This document shows positions 42,323 to 50,512 of a stretch of DNA of 64,000 nucleotides, one piece after another (within the stretch, counting starts at the first letter, position 1; each line of letters starts with the position of its first letter). Below the pieces are notes generated by a model that saw nothing but the letters and a program-made list of their open reading frames with translations, was not told the origin of the DNA and made no database searches. A program made the translations under genes and the position numbers. Origin of the DNA: a virus; the IMG/VR virus record IMGVR_UViG_3300032288_001980, positions 1-64,000 of that record; one strand, 5' to 3'.

Positions 42323-42697
42323 ATGACTACATTTGTCGCCACGGATTCGTTTACACTAGAACAAGTGCAAGACTTTGCACGTATTAGTGGCGACGACCAA
42401 GAAATTCATGTAGTACACGGTATTGTGCAAGGCGGATTCATTATCAGCAAACTGCCTCAATGGCTAGTATGGAGTAAGTTTACCGAACAGGAATATTTCA
42501 AAGACTGTAAGTATGCGCTCAGTGCAAAAATGGATTTGAAGTTTAGTAAACCTGTTAGAGTTGATACTCCTTTGACAATAGAATTTACTTGCGATAATAT
42601 TAAGTCAGCAATCGTCACTATCGACTGGATTGTTAAAAGTGAAAATACTCGGCATTGCTGGGGATCATGGAAAGTTGTTACAAGAAATGGCACATAA
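42323..42697 (+). CDS. MaoC-like hotdog-fold dehydratase
   Basis: VQDFARISGDDQEIHV, IVQGGF, KFSKPVRV; start moved downstream of the promoter. Confidence 0.75.
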   Translation: MTTFVATDSFTLEQVQDFARISGDDQEIHVVHGIVQGGFIISKLPQWLVWSKFTEQEYFKDCKYALSAKMDLKFSKPVRVDTPLTIEFTCDNIKSAIVTIDWIVKSENTRHCWGSWKVVTRNGT

Positions 42698-43691
42698 ACG
42701 AATTGGCTTTGCTTGCAAGTGGATTGACTTTCCGCATCAGACTGACGGTATCAAACCCAAAGATGACTGCAAGAAATACAATACTGGCACTACTACTATC
42801 AGTTGGTTAAATAGACAAACTAGATCTGTAGCCGAACAAAAGCTCTGGGACCTGATGGTTCAAAACTTAGAAGCTACTAAGTTGCTGGTAGAAAGAGTTG
42901 GCAATCTTGAACCGAAATTTCGTATGGTCCGCCTTAGCAGTGATTTGTTGCCTGCTTATACCGAGCCTAGCTGGCGCTATTTTTGGCATCAGCCTGGGAC
43001 TGTTAGCTATCTTGAGCAACATTTTTCTATCATTGGCCAGCTGGCTAGGCAACTGGGTGTACGTCTTAGTTTTCATCCCGGCCAATATTGCGTACTGGCT
43101 AGTGAATCAGCTGACGTAGTTGATCGTAGTGTAGAGGAGTTTGAATATCATGTGGACATGGCCCGTTACATGGGATACGGTAAAGAATTTCAGGATTTTA
43201 AAATCAATGTCCACATCGCGGGTCGACGCGGTCCCCAAGGTATCATCGACATTATTCCACGACTCACTCCAGAAGCCCGTAACACACTTACCATCGAAAA
43301 CGACGAAATGTCGTGGGGCGTCGAAGACAGCATCAAGCTCGTTGACCATTGTGCCCTTGTACTCGATATACACCATCACTGGATCCGTACAGGAGAGTAC
43401 ATTCAGCCCTCCGACGATAGAGTATTACGTATAATTGATAGCTGGCGCGGCGTTCGGCCCGTTATCCATTACTCTGTTAGTCGCGAAGATATTTTAGTGG
43501 GGCATTGCGTTGATACTCTGCCCGACATGCACAGTTTGCTAGCACAGGGCTACAAAAAAGCCAAACTTAGAGCACACAGTGACTTTTATTGGAATACCGC
43601 AGTTAACCAATGGGCTATTACCTTTAACGATCAATTTGATATTATGTGCGAAAGCAAGGGTAAGAATTTGGCCAGTTTTCAATTAAATTAG
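42687..43691 (+). CDS. uvsE: UV-damage endonuclease (UvsE/UVDE)
   Basis: RIGFACK, RLSSDL, RLSFHPGQY, IENDE, LDIHHH, HYS, AHSD, MCESKGK. Confidence 0.92.
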   Translation: MAHKRIGFACKWIDFPHQTDGIKPKDDCKKYNTGTTTISWLNRQTRSVAEQKLWDLMVQNLEATKLLVERVGNLEPKFRMVRLSSDLLPAYTEPSWRYFWHQPGTVSYLEQHFSIIGQLARQLGVRLSFHPGQYCVLASESADVVDRSVEEFEYHVDMARYMGYGKEFQDFKINVHIAGRRGPQGIIDIIPRLTPEARNTLTIENDEMSWGVEDSIKLVDHCALVLDIHHHWIRTGEYIQPSDDRVLRIIDSWRGVRPVIHYSVSREDILVGHCVDTLPDMHSLLAQGYKKAKLRAHSDFYWNTAVNQWAITFNDQFDIMCESKGKNLASFQLN

Positions 43692-44065: not shown

Positions 44066-44108
44066 AAACCCCGCTAAATATAAGATTAAAACTTATATAG
44101 CGGGGTTT
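44066..44108 (+). terminator. Long hairpin acting as terminator and/or gate; contains TAAATA
   Basis: AAACCCCGCT/AGCGGGGTTT plus ATATAAG/CTTATAT; TAAATA 44075-44080; next ATG 44112. Confidence 0.7.
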
Positions 44109-44111
44109 TCC

Positions 44112-45098
44112 ATGAGATTTGAAGAATTTATTAGTCAGCCAGCAATAGGCGACATCATTGAAATTGAACTAGGCGAAGAAATAGTAGAAGCGGTTATCAC
44201 TGCCGTTAACGGTGACGAAATTGTTGCTGAAACTGATAGTATATCCGGTGCCAACTTACTAGTTGAGTCTTATGGAAAATACTGGTGCAGTACAGATAAA
44301 AAGTGGAAGGAACGTCAGGGTCCTAAGCAAACACGCAGTAGTGAAAGCATTGAAGAAGTCAAGCAAAGACTAGATCCTAAATGCTGGGACGGTTATAAAA
44401 AACAGGGCACCAAAATCAAAGGTGGTGTTAGAGTTAATAACTGTGTTAAAGAATCAGCAGATGTTAACAGTCTAGCTAAAATCAGCGATGAAGCACTAGA
44501 CAAAGCCTACGGGTACGGTCGCAGTAGTCCTGGTAACACATTTGGCTGGCAAGCCAATGTTATGAGTGCCACTTATGCTAAAAAACTAATTGATGCTGGA
44601 GAAACAGATATTGAAAAAATCTCTGATGCTATCCACAAAGGTTGGAATGTTACTGCACAAAAGTTTGTACAAGATCCCAATCAGTTTGATGATACAGAAA
44701 AACTACGCCAAGCAGGTAAACTAGATGCTAAGTTAGAGCAAAGAGCCAAGTTAATGAAAATTAACTATGCTCAGTTGTCCGAAGACGAAAAAGAAAAAGA
44801 CCGCGTTGTTGCTCGTGCTTTGTTACAAGCTATTAACGGTGAGCAAGGTGTGGCGGAAGCTGAATATCAAGGACGCAATGTTCCCTTAGGCAAGCCAATG
44901 CAAGGCGATGTTAAGAAGTTTAAGGTTTATGTACGTGATCCAAGCACAGGTAATGTGAAAAAAGTAAACTTTGGCGATCCTAACATGCGTATTAAAAAGT
45001 CCAACCCTAAACGCCGTAAGAGTTTCCGTGCAAGACACAATTGCAGTAACCCAGGACCACGTACAAAGGCACGTTACTGGTCATGCAGAAAGTGGTAA
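44112..45098 (+). CDS. MRFxEF-tagged modular protein (Cys/Lys mini-modules, RyR-repeat-like domain, basic C-terminal module)
   Basis: MRFEEFIS; IHKGW...YAQLSEDEKEKDR; EQGVAE linker; AEYQGRNVPLGKP...RYWSCRKW. Confidence 0.75.
   Translation: MRFEEFISQPAIGDIIEIELGEEIVEAVITAVNGDEIVAETDSISGANLLVESYGKYWCSTDKKWKERQGPKQTRSSESIEEVKQRLDPKCWDGYKKQGTKIKGGVRVNNCVKESADVNSLAKISDEALDKAYGYGRSSPGNTFGWQANVMSATYAKKLIDAGETDIEKISDAIHKGWNVTAQKFVQDPNQFDDTEKLRQAGKLDAKLEQRAKLMKINYAQLSEDEKEKDRVVARALLQAINGEQGVAEAEYQGRNVPLGKPMQGDVKKFKVYVRDPSTGNVKKVNFGDPNMRIKKSNPKRRKSFRARHNCSNPGPRTKARYWSCRKW
44845..44858 (+). repeat. 14-bp linker repeat AAGGTGTGGCGGAA, copy 1
   Basis: Identical at 46694-46707 and 47003-47016; encodes GVAE. 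Confidence 0.92.
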
Positions 45099-45101
45099 GC
45101 T

Positions 45102-45500
45102 GTGCGTAAACATATCAACATTGTAGAAGCTGTTAGTAAAGGTTGTCCCATTGCCACACATGATTTGGAAGTTAATGTAAAGAATCGACAAGTGGGTATA
45201 GACCAACATCACTATGGGCCAGCTAATCCAGACAAGCCCGGCGACTACTGGAAAGTAGCTGCCAAGCAATGGAAGATAGATGAAAAGACTGCCAAGACTA
45301 TGCAATGTGCAAACTGTGCGGCATTTAATATAACAGATGCTATGTACAAATGCATACATGATGGTATGGGCAAAGAAGCGTTTGAATCCGAAAAGACACG
45401 CGAAGCCGCAGACTTAGGTTACTGTAACTTATTGCATTTTAAATGTGCAGGTTCACGCAGTTGTGAGTTATGGATAACCGGCGGACCTATAGTAAAATAA
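45102..45500 (+). CDS. Cys/His-rich hypothetical protein (MRKHINIVE N-terminus)
   Basis: GCP..THD, CANCAAF, CIHDG, YCNLLHFKCAGSRSC. Confidence 0.72.
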   Translation: MRKHINIVEAVSKGCPIATHDLEVNVKNRQVGIDQHHYGPANPDKPGDYWKVAAKQWKIDEKTAKTMQCANCAAFNITDAMYKCIHDGMGKEAFESEKTREAADLGYCNLLHFKCAGSRSCELWITGGPIVK

Positions 45501-45501
45501 T

Positions 45502-47187
45502 ATGCGATTTACTGAATTCATTAAAGGTCCTGCACCTAAACAAACCAAAACACAATTCACAGAAATGGAATTGGCAATAATGGAGGGCGGCGGCAGTTTA
45601 GAACCCGCAGTCGAGTTGCCAGTTGTCAAACGTCAAAGTGCATTATCGCAGGCCATGGGCGAAGCAGAAATGGGTACTGCTTATGCTCGTAACATATCAC
45701 AAGAGTTTCGAAAACTAGGTTACAAAAAGATTGGCAGCGGTGCAGACAGTACTGTGTTTGCCAAAGAAGCAGGTTATGTAATTAAAATTCTTATGCCCGA
45801 AGATCCAGGTAGTCGTGCTGTAGAAGTGTTTAAAAAATTCTACGAATTTTGCCTGCAACATCAAGATCTTAAATGTTTGCCAGTAATCAACGAATATAAT
45901 ACTATCGATGTACTAGATAAAGAATACATTCAGATTGACATGGAACGACTTTTTCCTATTAGGAAAAATACGTTTTCCGAAGCAATGGTTTGGTATCTAA
46001 GTGATTATGTAAGCAATGACATTGCATGGCCTGCGGTTAAAGCGGAATTATCTAACCCTGATAAATGGGAAGAATCGCATTGGCCTAGGCAAGCTGATAA
46101 AATAGCTAACAAAGTAAAAAATCTCACAGCTGATCAAGAACAAACATGGAGTGAATTATATTCTGTAATGTCCATGTTATTTAAAACTGGACGTATCAAT
46201 AAACTAGGTTGGGACTTGCATACTGAAAATGTCATGCAACGTAAAAACGGCGATCTAGTTATTATCGATCCGTGGTTTGCCGACAATACTTTGTTAGAAT
46301 CTAATTTAGAAGAAAAGTGGAGTCAAAAGTACAAGAAGTCTATTAACTGTAGTAATCCCAAAGGATTTAGCCAACGTGCTCATTGCCAGGGTCGAAAGAA
46401 AAATGAAGGCGTTGAAGCCAATTTGAATACCAAGTATAGTCTAAAAAACATGTTCGGTGATGTAAAATCATTGGACAATTTAAGTCTTGAACAGTTGAAC
46501 AAGGCCATGGACGGCCGTGTTCGACTTGTGGGAAGAAAATTTCGCAGTCAAGAAGGACGCAGTTTTAGATACGATGTTAAACTGGCCAATGGTGAATGGT
46601 ATATCATGCATGTAGTTTATGTGCATGGCTTAATTGATGCTTGGCTCACCGATGAAGAAAACAATAAGATACCGTTGAGCAAATTTAAGGCAAAAGGTGT
46701 GGCGGAAGGTATTGATATTGGTCAGGAGTGGATGAGCGATACTGAACTCGACGACTATGTACCAATACAACTTCAAGACGAGTGGCGTGAGCTGTTGGGA
46801 TTTGATGAAGAAGGAAATCCACATCCATTATGGGTTAACATGACTGGGGACTACGAGCCTAACTCAAACGATCCACAACATCGTGCATGGATGGTCAAAG
46901 TAGCTAACAAATGGTTTGCTATGAAAAAGATTCCTAATGTCAAATTCTATGATGTTAGGGACATAGATGACGAATTAGAATGGTTGGTTCAGATTGGTCA
47001 GCAAGGTGTGGCGGAAAACTTTGCTGACGGCAAAGTCAAAGGCAAAAGCCGGCCCGGTCGTGTAAAACGTGCAGGTGCTAGTTGTGATGGTTCAGTCACT
47101 GACTTACGTGCTAAAGCAAAAAATGCCAGCGGCGAGAAAAGTAAAATGTATCACTGGTGTGCTAATATGAAGTCGGGTAAAAAGTAA
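45502..47187 (+). CDS. MRFxEF-tagged modular protein containing a protein-kinase-like domain
   Basis: GSGADSTV, VIK, DLHTEN, IIDP; then KWSQKYKKSINC module, two GVAE linkers and a basic NFADGK module. Confidence 0.78.
   Translation: MRFTEFIKGPAPKQTKTQFTEMELAIMEGGGSLEPAVELPVVKRQSALSQAMGEAEMGTAYARNISQEFRKLGYKKIGSGADSTVFAKEAGYVIKILMPEDPGSRAVEVFKKFYEFCLQHQDLKCLPVINEYNTIDVLDKEYIQIDMERLFPIRKNTFSEAMVWYLSDYVSNDIAWPAVKAELSNPDKWEESHWPRQADKIANKVKNLTADQEQTWSELYSVMSMLFKTGRINKLGWDLHTENVMQRKNGDLVIIDPWFADNTLLESNLEEKWSQKYKKSINCSNPKGFSQRAHCQGRKKNEGVEANLNTKYSLKNMFGDVKSLDNLSLEQLNKAMDGRVRLVGRKFRSQEGRSFRYDVKLANGEWYIMHVVYVHGLIDAWLTDEENNKIPLSKFKAKGVAEGIDIGQEWMSDTELDDYVPIQLQDEWRELLGFDEEGNPHPLWVNMTGDYEPNSNDPQHRAWMVKVANKWFAMKKIPNVKFYDVRDIDDELEWLVQIGQQGVAENFADGKVKGKSRPGRVKRAGASCDGSVTDLRAKAKNASGEKSKMYHWCANMKSGKK
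46694..46707 (+). repeat. 14-bp linker repeat, copy 2
   Basis: AAGGTGTGGCGGAA. Confidence 0.92.
47003..47016 (+). repeat. 14-bp linker repeat, copy 3
   Basis: AAGGTGTGGCGGAA; 17-bp identity with copy 1 (AGCAAGGTGTGGCGGAA). Confidence 0.92.
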
Positions 47188-47835: not shown

Positions 47836-48462
47836 ATGCGTTTAAAAGAAATTTCACAGCAATATCTTTGGCACGGATCCAGGAACAAAATTCCTGTTCT
47901 AGAGCCAAGACAATCACTAGACACTGGTGGCGCACCAGGTAGTAACCAAAACGCTATCTATGCTACCAGCGACCCAAAAGTTGCAATTGCCATGGGACTT
48001 ACAACAGCTGGTTCTGACACTGGTATGTTTCCTAATGACCCTCAAATGGTTTTATTCAGTGGAAAAATTAGAAAAGGCGAAAATGTTTATTTGCACAAAG
48101 TACCTATGAACGGTCCTGATGGCAAGCCACAGTTTGTGCCCGGCGGTAACAGTAGAGAATTTCATTCCGTTCCTGGAGTTAAAGAAATTAAACCAGTAGA
48201 AATAAAAGAAGTTCCTGTGGACCAGTATCTTCATTTAATCAGAGAAGCTACTCCTGAAGACTGGGAACTACGCAAAAAGTACATGAAGCAAAGTGTAGAC
48301 GAAGCACGTTATCACGGCCGTGAAGTAACACTGGGTATTCCAGTTAAACAGGGCGAACATTATTTTGTTTATCAACGAGATCCTATTACTCAAAAAATAA
48401 AAAAGGTAATACACAAAGAGCCGGCAAAGAAAGTTAAAAAAGTCAAAACTATACGTAAGTGA
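47836..48462 (+). CDS. MRLxE-tagged protein: putative ADP-ribosyltransferase-like domain plus a C-terminal module shared with ORF 44112
   Basis: LWHGS...LEPR...IYATSD (Arr-like H-Y pattern); QSVDE then ARYHGREVTLGIP. Confidence 0.6.
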   Translation: MRLKEISQQYLWHGSRNKIPVLEPRQSLDTGGAPGSNQNAIYATSDPKVAIAMGLTTAGSDTGMFPNDPQMVLFSGKIRKGENVYLHKVPMNGPDGKPQFVPGGNSREFHSVPGVKEIKPVEIKEVPVDQYLHLIREATPEDWELRKKYMKQSVDEARYHGREVTLGIPVKQGEHYFVYQRDPITQKIKKVIHKEPAKKVKKVKTIRK

Positions 48463-48487: not shown

Positions 48488-50512
48488 ATGAAAAAACTTT
48501 TTGAGATTCGAAACTTAAATCCCGTTAAACGAATTGAGCAGGACTACGATGAAAAGCATAGACTGGCCATGGAAGCCATTAAGCCCTATGCTAGATCCGT
48601 ACCACAAAGTAATTTAACTCCTGTTAGTATAGACTATATTAGTAGAAAAACTAGTATAGTATTTTTACTATTGCCAGAGTGGGCACATAATTTTCCTCCT
48701 TATAACGTGGCCCGCTTGGCCGCAGTGACTAAAGCAGCCGGCTACGAAACACATGCATTTGATCTTAACGCCAAAGCATATCAAAATCATACCAATTGGA
48801 AGTTAGACTATAATCCATGGGCCGGCAATAGAGATTGGAAGTGGCGCAGTCCGCACTATGAACAAGAACTCAGTCCACATGTCGAAAAATTTCTAAGTCC
48901 TTACATAGAAAAAATAGTAAAACTTAATCCTACGGTTGTAGGACTTACACTATATTACTGCAACGAAGAAGCCAGCAAATGGATGGCTCGAGAATTAAAA
49001 AAGCGTATGCCCAATTTAATAGTAATGGTTGGCGGGCCTAGTTGTCATCAAAGCTACTGGGAGCCTCCCAAAGAATATGACTATATTGTATCTGGCGAAG
49101 GCGAAAAAATGTTATTAGAAGCCATGGAAGAAATAGAACAAGGTATTGTCAAACCCAAGCCTGTATGGTTTAGACAGCAAGATGGACAGCGTTTAGACTT
49201 AGACAGTATTCCTAGTCCAGACTACAGTCATTTTCCTGCCAGCGACTATTCTGTACCTAATGGTATTAATGCAGAACTTAGCAGAGGTTGTATAGCCAAA
49301 TGTGTATTTTGCAGTGAAACACATTACTGGAAATATCGCGGCAGAATGGCACGTAACATTATTGACGAACTAGCAGACTTGTATTATAATCGCGGAGTAG
49401 ATGTAGTATGGTTCATTGACAGTTTAGTTAATGGCAATCTTAAAGAATTACGTGCATTTGCTCTAGGAGTAGTAGCACGTGGTATGAAATTACATTGGAC
49501 CGGGTATGCTAGATGTGATGGGCGCATGGACTTGGACTATTATAAGGACCTTGCTGCCAGCGGCTGCTTTAGTTTAAGTTATGGTATTGAATCTGGGTCA
49601 AACAAAGTTCTCGCTGACATGGACAAAGGCGTAACTGTTGAAGAAATAGAACAGAATTTTAGAGACGGTGCCGAAGTTGGAGTCGAAGCATTTACTAACT
49701 GGATAGTTGGATTTCCTACTGAACAGCCGCAGGACTTGTATGACAGTATGCAGTTGATATGGCGTAATAGAAATAATAATATCAGCAGTATTGCCGCTGG
49801 TATGGGTTTTATTATTCCACCCGACACTATTATTGCACAGGCTGTGGAAAAATTTAACATAGCAAAAAACTACTTTGAAAATAACTGGATAACCAATGAC
49901 TATCGCAACAGTAAAGTTCACAGACTTATAAGGTTAAAGATTTTTAACATATTGTTGATTAATTTAATTAACAAACAAGGACATGATTATACCAATAGAC
50001 CAAACCTTAAACACAGCTATAAATTAAAGGCCAGTTCGTTAAAAGAAATTGAATTTGAGCAATTTGACTTTAATATATGCAAGCCTAACATCAGCAGTTT
50101 TGCAGACAGTGTTGTTAATGAAGTATGGCCTTTACTAAGACTGCTTTGGAGAACAAGGGGTGCATTTAGTATAGACTTGCAGTTTAATCCCGAACAAGAC
50201 AGTCAAGAGTTTGGATGGAATTTAAGCAGTGATTTTACTGCACAAATTAAATTTGAAATCAACGAGCAAGGGCGATGGACTGCGGATTTTTACTATAAGT
50301 TCAAGCAAGCAGAAAATGCTTGGAATTTCAATGACTATTCAACAGCGACCAGCGTGGCTGCTAGCAGAGCTCGCAAATTAGCAGTACCAGGAAGCACAGG
50401 ACAAGTAGTCTACGACGATGAAGAAAGAGACCGACATTTGGCTTTATTAGAACAGCGCAAACAACTGGATTTCAGTTTCGAATACACATACAAAGATATT
50501 GGACAATGGTAA
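48488..50512 (+). CDS. Cobalamin-binding radical SAM enzyme (class B methyltransferase-like)
   Basis: PTVVGLT and VMVGGP B12-binding domain; SRGCIAKCVFC CxxxCxxC; FIDS, GIESGS, WIVGFPTE. Confidence 0.9.
   Translation: MKKLFEIRNLNPVKRIEQDYDEKHRLAMEAIKPYARSVPQSNLTPVSIDYISRKTSIVFLLLPEWAHNFPPYNVARLAAVTKAAGYETHAFDLNAKAYQNHTNWKLDYNPWAGNRDWKWRSPHYEQELSPHVEKFLSPYIEKIVKLNPTVVGLTLYYCNEEASKWMARELKKRMPNLIVMVGGPSCHQSYWEPPKEYDYIVSGEGEKMLLEAMEEIEQGIVKPKPVWFRQQDGQRLDLDSIPSPDYSHFPASDYSVPNGINAELSRGCIAKCVFCSETHYWKYRGRMARNIIDELADLYYNRGVDVVWFIDSLVNGNLKELRAFALGVVARGMKLHWTGYARCDGRMDLDYYKDLAASGCFSLSYGIESGSNKVLADMDKGVTVEEIEQNFRDGAEVGVEAFTNWIVGFPTEQPQDLYDSMQLIWRNRNNNISSIAAGMGFIIPPDTIIAQAVEKFNIAKNYFENNWITNDYRNSKVHRLIRLKIFNILLINLINKQGHDYTNRPNLKHSYKLKASSLKEIEFEQFDFNICKPNISSFADSVVNEVWPLLRLLWRTRGAFSIDLQFNPEQDSQEFGWNLSSDFTAQIKFEINEQGRWTADFYYKFKQAENAWNFNDYSTATSVAASRARKLAVPGSTGQVVYDDEERDRHLALLEQRKQLDFSFEYTYKDIGQW

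Follow-up and report, generated by a model that had tools for sequence, protein, structure and literature searches.

The 14-mer AAGGTGTGGCGGAA occurs three times in the window, that is, in the whole 64,000-nucleotide stretch of viral DNA that was analysed, and we consider it moderately probable that it is the core of a dual-coded junction between modules of polyvalent-type proteins in a clade of T4-like phages of about 350 kb. Such a junction would combine a DNA crossover point with a predicted head-protease site. According to this explanation, the element would join independently folding modules in multi-module ('polyvalent') proteins of uncultured T4-like phages. At the DNA level, comparison of relatives shows the element to be the crossover point where whole modules are gained, lost and replaced in frame. 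Its silent positions are kept, which would follow if recombination required intact copies or if the copies underwent repeated homogenisation. At the protein level, we infer that the V-A-E of the linker matches the hydrophobic-x-Glu rule of the T4 gp21-type (S77) protease encoded by the same genome. The multi-module proteins would be loaded into the prohead via T4-like leaders, and cutting at the junctions would release small basic peptides as well as enzymes, in this case a protein kinase, as separate products that would travel with the DNA. Against this explanation, a match of 12-18 bp is short for homologous recombination, and selection 'for recombinability' is a second-order argument.

AAGGTGTGGCGGAA is found in three exact copies on the + strand, at 44845, 46694 and 47003, although shuffled sequences gave an expectation of 0.21 copies and none of 100 shuffles reached three. 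All three copies read GGT GTG GCG GAA, i.e., G-V-A-E, in the ORFs 44112-45098 and 45502-47187. With 1 mismatch allowed, no fourth copy was detected in the whole 183,898-bp record, and the 14-mer is confined to two adjacent genes. The record also contains no antisense copy of the linker element. Copies 1 and 3 have 17 bp in common, AGCAAGGTGTGGCGGAA, which at copy 1 (44842..44858) encodes (E)Q-G-V-A-E. The 14-mer itself is the core of an 18-nt element, (C/G)AA GGT GTG GCG GAA G(G/C)N, encoding (Q/E/K)-G-V-A-E-(G/A/E). Both of its central codons are rare in the long ORFs of this genome, GTG representing 9.9% of Val codons and GCG 7.2% of Ala codons. A previous sequence-only reading of this DNA had described the repeat, its 17-bp extension, its constant frame, its rare codons and its placement between modules, and on all these points the description proved accurate.

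The module boundaries were defined as follows, all features of the two genes and of their neighbour being on the + strand. In gene 1 (44112..45098; P0001, 328 aa), the leader MRFEEFI is followed by two Cys mini-modules and a middle module of 124 aa; after the linker comes a basic module at the C-terminus. Copy 1 is located directly 5' of this last module (AEYQGR..RKSFRARHNC..YWSC, 79 aa, pI 11.1; 44859..45095), which is a free-standing gene in other phages. Gene 2 (45502..47187; P0002, 561 aa) encodes a leader MRFTEFI followed by a T7 gp0.7-like protein kinase (residues ~59-268; 45676..46305), which has a high-confidence predicted fold and matches PHROG 15752 over residues 62-261. Then come the Cys mini-module WSQKYKKSINCSNPKGFSQRAHC (46306..46416), ending in a degenerate junction EGVE (46404), and a beta-rich module (46417..46707; pLDDT 86-94 over residues 330-370), which ends in linker copy 2 (46694-46707). 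A 309-bp cassette (46708..47016) follows, made of a 103-aa acidic module (GIDIGQEW..QIGQQ) and linker copy 3 (47003-47016), with the 14-bp direct repeat at both bounds; the presence of this 103-aa module, bracketed by copies 2 and 3, varies between strains. Copy 3 is directly 5' of a basic C-terminal module of 56 aa (NFADGK..YHWCANMKSGKK, pI 10.3; 47017..47184). Elsewhere, the sequences upstream of the NFADGK module are of about 100 different kinds, or the module stands by itself after a short leader MRAxEF(V/I)xE; nothing matching it was detected in cultured phages. In the AlphaFold model, the linkers are low-confidence stretches between confident domains. A neighbouring leader-bearing gene (MRLKEI; 47836..48462) carries a second, diverged AEYQGR-type module behind the junction SVDE (48291). 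Neither Pfam nor NCBIfam has a family for P0001 or P0002, and their PHROG matches comprise the kinase and families of unknown function, nothing else.

The 18-nt element recurs in at least 120 IMG/VR stretches with unrelated flanks. At 80 loci from these matches, 115 of 116 copies are in the GVAE frame within long multi-module ORFs; the matches were to the bare 15-mer. When loci were selected by protein instead, all 43 distinct exact sites were in-frame GVAE. Nearly all the contigs bearing the element are rated fragments of T4-like genomes of about 350 kb, with 1-4 copies per genome in one orientation and clustered in one region. Among the cultured relatives searched, no phage carries the canonical linker: exact copies were absent from the capsid-protein relatives Vibrio phage 2.275.O, Phosso, PA5oct, GAP32 and CBB as well as from the marine Kyanoviridae HTVC008M, C48C1 and Melnitz.

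The sequence-only reading had also supposed that the linker is conserved as DNA, and the relatives support it, since synonymous variants are rarer at the linker than elsewhere in the same ORFs and its silent sites are fixed across a clade of uncultured giant T4-like phages. In two protein-ascertained sets, the linker Val codon is GTG in 76% and 100% of cases against 23-29% elsewhere in the same ORFs, and the linker Ala codon is GCG in 70% and 96% against 6-7% (binomial P 1e-13 to 1e-42). Four-fold sites within conserved modules are randomised. Where flanks are homologous, four-fold codon identity is 0.88 in the linker and 0.43 in the flank (only 22 pairs, which are not independent). Conservation is limited to about 18 nt, with nothing conserved outside, and we found no other 12-mer comparably common to linker-bearing loci. 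At these module borders, the nucleotide sequence is conserved beyond what the peptide needs.

Close relatives differ by whole modules exactly at the linker copies. Three near-identical alleles of gene 2 differ only between copies 2 and 3, where they hold nothing, the 103-aa module or about 600 aa. P0007, 97% identical to the gene 2 product, lacks exactly the 103 aa between the two copies. P0249 matches at 99% identity as far as copy 2 and completely beyond its last linker, but the intervening stretch of about 600 aa is unrelated. For gene 1, the sister allele P0126 shares 99% identity with P0001 and carries 78 additional aa immediately behind copy 1; the right border of this insert is HVSE and not a canonical linker. 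P0007 and P0126 are encoded on one JGI/ENA contig of 15,108 bp, and P0249 on a Logan contig of 7,931 bp. The crossovers in P0007, P0249 and P0126 were mapped at the protein level. In blastn comparisons, the ends of similarity blocks fell within 12 nt of linkers 365 times against 70 expected, a 5-fold enrichment. The predicted deletion junction had no match in the IMG/VR scan, and a metagenome scan with P0007 returned no near-identical contig, both scans possibly not covering very close records. With gene 2 alleles and the P0126 insert placed at linkers, the reading of the element as a recombination joint is strongly supported by these sequence comparisons. The sequence-only reading had proposed such a joint for swapping domains between genes, and the proposal holds more broadly than it was made, with module gain, loss and replacement between close relatives and protein-level breakpoints at the three copies.

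The silent positions could instead serve at the RNA or translation level, either as a ribosome pause for stepwise folding of the modules or as the binding site of a regulator, with swapping as a by-product of the shared sequence. The AGGTG of the element (Shine-Dalgarno-like AGGUG) and its two rare codons (GUG, GCG) lie exactly between folding units and would fit such a role, as would linker silent sites that outlast those of homologous flanks. However, no start codon lies at a useful distance downstream, and for this reason internal translation initiation at AGGTG was rejected; there is no antisense partner in 184 kb, nothing is conserved beyond ~18 nt, and three alleles at one site between 97-99% identical strains would be left unexplained. 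We regard this role as improbable. Less probable still is that cassette exchange is driven by a dedicated enzyme of these phages recognising the 14-18 bp element, such as a homing-type endonuclease or a site-specific recombinase. A core strictly conserved at a defined length, in one orientation per genome and clustered in one region, speaks for it, but no candidate enzyme is linked to the element, which is asymmetric, has no inverted repeat and is present in few copies per genome. Finally, the three copies being the only ones and all within 2.2 kb could point to a local coincidence or a recent local duplication, a view that has next to no probability once the same 12-18 nt are seen in so many other viral stretches, in frame and with unrelated flanks, and once shuffling never yields three copies. 

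A wider form of the dual-coded junction, which we put forward tentatively and with some doubt, is that GVAE is a selected cassette junction, at once a predicted cut site and a crossover signal, which would give intron-less in-frame 'exon shuffling' across the giant-phage clade with a shared library of small injected effectors. The silent sites would then be maintained by selection on recombinability as such, or by the requirement of a dedicated enzyme that reads the element.

We then considered the linker as a protease site. This genome encodes a T4 gp21-type prohead protease (Peptidase_S77, 165696-166142; PF03420, 88.5 bits) and a Gp23-type capsid protein (167571-168527; PF07068). Of the 25 related contigs searched, 6 encode the S77 protease, among them 4 of the 5 near-complete genomes; the remainder are mostly small fragments. 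In 238 database homologues, the junctions before three different modules have Glu at P1 in 100% of cases and L/I/V/M at P3 in 97-100%, with a variable P2. The capsid protein propeptide of this phage contains ALLE, AVME and YLSE, and the published T4 cleavage sites are ITE, LTE and LIE (PMC5694885, PMC9026906). In T4, Asp instead of Glu at P1 prevents processing (PMC9026906). The degenerate junctions listed by the sequence-only reading do exist, and SVDE (48291) and GVDE (57363) fit hydrophobic-x-Glu, whereas EGVE (46404) does not strictly fit, having Gly at P3. Hydrophobic-x-Glu is a short motif that is also present inside folded modules. The AEYQGR module is fused behind this motif in the five S77-bearing phages checked (5/5), and in the four phages checked that lack S77 it is a free gene starting MA.Y.GR (4/4). 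The generic junction is present in the cultured S77-bearing phages Melnitz, HTVC008M and Flavobacterium phage immuto, where the predicted N-termini after cutting are SEYQGKD, AEFQGKK and GEYRGKD.

The leaders are similar to the 10-aa targeting sequence of T4, in which residues 8 and 10 decide processing (PMC5694885, PMC9026906). By eye, M-x-x-x-(E/D/Q/N)-(L/F/I)-x-x-E was recognised in over half of the linker-bearing ORFs with a complete N-terminus, the strict M-[RK] form accounting for 24 of 85, and 11 genes in the window have a leader of this kind. Neighbouring genes have leaders that fit the targeting pattern fully (MRLQELLAE, MRAHEFIQE), as do those of many linker-bearing ORFs elsewhere, whereas P0001 (MRFEEFISQ) and P0002 (MRFTEFIKG) start with leader-like sequences without Glu at about position 9, their first hydrophobic-x-Glu coming later. 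Since V-A-E fits the protease rule and the leaders resemble the T4 targeting sequence, linker proteins probably enter the prohead and undergo cutting at their junctions. The GVAE linker is a plausible prohead-protease cut site, as the sequence-only reading had proposed, judging indirectly from the motifs, the leaders, the presence of the protease and the module fusion that correlates with it.

The linker might nevertheless be a recombination joint and nothing more, that is, a flexible spacer and crossover point in proteins that act uncut, as do some polyvalent proteins such as the N4 virion RNA polymerase, with hydrophobic-x-Glu as a structural end-cap. All direct evidence indeed concerns DNA exchange, polyvalent proteins packaged unprocessed were noted by Iyer et al. 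2017 (PMC5512222), and the leaders of P0001 and P0002 depart from the T4 pattern. On the other hand, a spacer would not account for a P1 Glu without exception, an aliphatic P3 and a variable P2 before several unrelated modules, for module starts that coincide exactly with the residue at which free-standing homologues start after Met, or for a fusion that tracks the S77 protease (5/5 vs 0/4). We consider an uncut spacer unlikely and retain the dual-coded junction.

If both halves of this junction are true, a single 18-nt element would carry the message 'recombine here' as DNA and 'cut here' as protein, and protein modules would be shuffled naturally with preservation of the frame and without introns. 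This would explain how giant T4-like phages diversify the proteins that accompany their DNA, likely anti-defence tools, and by which route very small proteins, which are widespread among aquatic viruses, archaeal spindle viruses included, become capsid cargo. In practice, the element is a defined sequence tag with which metagenomes can be searched for candidate cargo proteins, and modular payloads for capsid delivery by T4-type vectors might be designed after the same rule.

No paper describing the GVAE linker was found in the literature searched, and to that extent the claim of an undescribed system holds; its ingredients, however, are of known kinds, namely T4 internal proteins, polyvalent proteins and recombination at conserved motifs. 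With regard to the last, the interdomain 'recer' sequences of Gram-positive surface proteins, attributed to de Chateau and Bjorck in 1996, are reportedly short stretches of conserved nucleotides between modules which, besides encoding a spacer peptide, promote the shuffling of modules in frame and without introns. They come from different organisms, have an unrelated sequence and are not known to have been given a second role as a protease site. Within the T4-type phages, recombination takes place at conserved motifs of two kinds, the glycine-rich motifs of gp38 adhesins (PMC3157838) and the PeSL promoter-terminator cassettes (PMC2839356, PMC4122927); these short motifs border variable segments, and the exchanges are located within or close to them. 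As here, close strains of the same phage superfamily differ by insertion, deletion and replacement at the motifs. However, the gp38 motifs are structural core elements within one domain and PeSLs are intergenic and regulatory, whereas the GVAE element, with its rare codons, is intragenic and separates whole folding units. The GVAE element works like the recer, glycine-rich and PeSL motifs, and no homology is claimed.

In T4, IPI, IPII, IPIII and Alt carry a capsid-targeting sequence that the gp21 prohead protease cleaves off (Mullaney and Black 1996; PMC9026906, PMC3012670, PMC5694885). As with these internal proteins, the phage is of the T4 type, with Gp23 as capsid protein and an S77 protease; the N-termini have a short leader similar in form, the junctions follow hydrophobic-x-Glu, the predicted products are small, basic and variable and include enzymes (Alt in T4, the kinase here), and the genes form a variable arms-race set. 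The system described here differs from the internal proteins in having many modules per gene with internal sites, instead of one protein per gene, in a junction also fixed at the DNA level, in targeting and cleavage that are predicted from sequence, and in the P0001 and P0002 leaders, which have no terminal Glu.

Phages and conjugative elements encode polyvalent proteins, for which packaging and co-delivery with DNA are presumed; they are extremely mosaic, recombinational variability was suggested for them, and embedded metallopeptidases were proposed to process them, the word 'linker' being absent from the paper (Iyer, Burroughs, Anand, de Souza, Aravind 2017, PMC5512222). Here, the head protease encoded by the phage itself is the candidate processor, and the swaps are marked by a junction conserved at the nucleotide level. 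The likeness lies in multi-domain mixes of kinases, GNATs, deaminases, ParB and ART-type domains. GNAT and deaminase domains are present in linker-bearing ORFs, and in homologues the kinase found in P0002 occurs alongside ParB, PF18760, deaminase, GNAT and Zeta-toxin-type domains. As in polyvalent proteins, unrelated effector-type domains are found in one polypeptide, with mosaic architectures among relatives.

The window contains exactly three copies of the linker, a 14-mer coding G-V-A-E (AAGGTGTGGCGGAA), at 44845, 46694 and 47003, as the sequence-only reading had claimed; copies 1 and 3 have 17 bp in common, also as it stated. Every copy lies on the + strand. Dinucleotide shuffles gave 0.21 expected copies and three copies in 0 of 100 shuffles, and no further copy with at most one mismatch was found in the whole 183,898-bp virus record. 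All three copies read GGT GTG GCG GAA, in the claimed frame, within two adjacent + strand ORFs, P0001 (44112-45098, 328 aa) and P0002 (45502-47187, 561 aa). In the long ORFs of the phage genome, GTG makes up 9.9% of Val codons and GCG 7.2% of Ala codons, and therefore the impression that these codons are rare was right. The record encodes a Peptidase_S77 (T4 gp21-type prohead protease, 88.5 bits) and a Gp23-type major capsid protein; it was rated 52% complete by CheckV, so the genome would be about 350 kb. The nearest cultured capsid proteins (65-69% identity) are all from giant phages, namely Vibrio phage 2.275.O, Sinorhizobium phage Phosso, PA5oct, GAP32 and CBB.

Both ORFs are modular. P0001 starts with a leader (MRFEEFI), after which come two Cys mini-modules, one module of 124 aa and a basic one of 79 aa (AEYQGR...RKSFRARHNC...). 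In P0002 a leader (MRFTEFI) and a T7 gp0.7-like kinase (PHROG 15752) are followed by a Cys mini-module (WSQKYKKSINC...), a module rich in beta structure, an acidic module of 103 aa and a basic one of 56 aa (NFADGK...YHWCANMKSGKK). In the AlphaFold model of P0002, confident folds were obtained for the kinase (~60-258), the beta module (~320-395) and the C-terminal module (520-558), while confidence was low at 301-317, 398-424 and 478-517, the sites of EGVE, linker copy 2 and linker copy 3.

To look at silent sites, we compared the linker codons with the remainder of the same ORFs in two data sets, both protein-ascertained. GGT was used at the linker in 94% and 100% of cases versus 34-41% elsewhere, GTG in 76% and 100% versus 23-29%, and GCG in 70% and 96% versus 6-7% (P for the excess from 1e-11 to 1e-42). 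In 22 junction pairs, not independent of one another, with a homologous flank of 50-95% amino-acid identity, four-fold codon identity was 0.88 in the linker versus 0.43 in the flank. These results indicate that the silent sites of the linker are fixed, in agreement with the proposed conservation at the DNA level. Four-fold sites within conserved modules were randomised (commonest codon, 0.32-0.79), and no other 12-mer among the linker-bearing loci behaved like the linker.

The linker is found well beyond this phage. Across 160 loci fetched by protein similarity only, the GVAE peptide occurred about 80 times in long ORFs and was encoded by exactly GGTGTGGCGGAA in 48; all 43 distinct exact copies in these loci, and 11 of 11 copies with one mismatch, were in the G-V-A-E frame. 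The consensus was A.(C/G)AA GGT GTG GCG GAA G(G/C/A)(C), conservation ending about 6 nt out on both sides. In an unbiased scan, the 15-mer AAGGTGTGGCGGAAG was detected in at least 120 IMG/VR stretches, and of the 116 copies in 80 of these loci, 115 were placed in frame 0 within long ORFs. Open frames at these loci had a median length of 548 codons, with up to seven GVAE linkers per ORF. Nineteen of the 20 linker-carrying contigs checked were rated fragments of ~350-kb genomes, and five near-complete relatives contained one to four copies each, on a single strand and, when several, within a stretch of about 10 kb. Peptidase_S77 was present in four of these five relatives and in two of the 20 fragments. 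No exact copy was found in the cultured relatives or marine Kyanoviridae examined.

Alleles of the two window genes, whose breakpoints were mapped at the protein level, change at the linker. P0007 (458 aa, from JGI and ENA), 97% identical to P0002, lacks exactly the 103 residues separating copies 2 and 3, and its junction reads ...KFKAKGVAE|NFADGK.... P0249, a Logan protein of 1063 aa, matches P0002 at 99% identity over residues 1-403 and perfectly from its last QGVAE onward; between them lie about 600 unrelated residues with more VAEG-type junctions (AAEG, SVAEG, QGVAE) and no Pfam match. P0126 (406 aa), 99% identical to P0001, carries a 78-aa insert immediately after copy 1 (...GEQGVAE|SDAGH...NSHVSE|AEYQGR...); its longest contig, of 15,108 bp, is also that of P0007. 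Between strains of 97-99% identity, the window genes show one site with three alleles and, elsewhere, another indel. The 103-aa module was found again in another locus (L014), in a different context with GVAE at both sides. In all-against-all blastn, 365 similarity-block ends fell within 12 nt of the linker versus 70 expected. The breakpoint test that the sequence-only reading had proposed thus gave a positive result, and its interpretation of the linker as a recombination joint is strongly supported.

The C-terminal modules of P0001 and P0002 are promiscuous. For each, over 600 IMG/VR stretches gave matches of 80-96% identity, which begin at the linker behind many upstream sequences unrelated to each other. 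The NFADGK module was also found solo behind a leader MRAxEF(V/I)xE. As a gene of its own, with the start MA(K/I/T)Y(K/R/Q)G(R/K), the AEYQGR module occurs in four viruses that lack S77 (Pelagibacter phages HTVC202P and Kolga, Roseobacter phage CRP-901 and a Nitrosopumilaceae spindle-shaped virus).

This basic Cys module of about 80 aa (AEYQGR..RKSFRARHNC..YWSC; window 44859-45095) is a tiny protein spread across domains: it stands free in SAR11 and Roseobacter podo- and siphoviruses and in archaeal, Nitrosopumilaceae spindle-shaped viruses (L167, L168, L169, L171), once annotated as 'HVA1 family protein'.

T4 gp21 is known to cut Alt at ITE-6 and LTE-619 and gp21 itself at LIE-9; for IPIII, whose targeting sequence is 10 aa long, processing depends on residues 8 and 10 of that sequence and is prevented by Asp at position 10 (PMC5694885, PMC9026906). 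Among 238 database homologues, junction P1 was Glu in 76/76, 15/15 and 15/15 cases before three different modules, P3 was L/I/V/M in 97-100% and P2 was variable, and GVAE occurred 169 times versus 2.4 expected. The AEYQGR module was fused behind hydrophobic-x-Glu in HTVC008M (LEE|AEF), C48C1 (LTE|AEY), Melnitz (MME|SEY), Flavobacterium phage immuto (LDE|GEY) and the window phage (VAE|AEY), and S77 is present in all five. A cut after Glu would leave an N-terminus equal to that of the free AEYQGR-type protein after Met removal. Among linker-bearing ORFs whose N-terminus is complete, over half begin, judged by eye, with M-x-x-x-(E/D/Q/N)-(L/F/I)-x-x-E, the strict M-[RK] form accounting for only 24 of 85. 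Eleven genes in window 40808-62977 start M-R-x-x-E-(L/F)-x-x-(E), such as MRLQELLAE, MRASELFE and MRAHEFIQE; these leaders resemble the T4 capsid-targeting sequence, although its terminal Glu is absent from those of P0001 and P0002. The capsid protein propeptide of the window phage contains ALLE, AVME and YLSE. The linker may plausibly be a head-protease site and the proteins capsid cargo.

On its recombination side, the GVAE system is like 'recer', the interdomain sequences of Gram-positive surface proteins. It also resembles there the glycine-rich motifs of gp38 adhesins (PMC3157838) and PeSL cassettes (PMC2839356). It would work like T4 internal proteins and Alt, with their targeting leader and gp21 processing, and like polyvalent proteins (Iyer et al. 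2017), whose kinase, GNAT, deaminase, ParB and PF18760 domain types recur in homologues here; that paper nowhere mentions linkers. We found no description of an intragenic element with silent sites fixed with rare codons that is both a swap point and a protease-type site, and no phage paper with GVAEG turned up in a full-text literature search.

Around the two genes, positions 44069-44110, immediately before the start codon at 44112, form a GC-rich hairpin (CCCCGCTA...TAGCGGGG) with TTTT after it; this is a putative terminator, and its loop region contains TAAATATAAG. Sandwiched between P0001 and P0002 is a Cys-rich ORF of 132 aa that starts with GTG (45102-45500), without a match in Pfam, PHROG or NCBIfam. 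Two enzyme genes, at 42630-43691 and 48488-50512, lie amid the leader-bearing ones: a UvdE UV-damage endonuclease (PF03851, 124 bits) and a B12-binding radical SAM enzyme.
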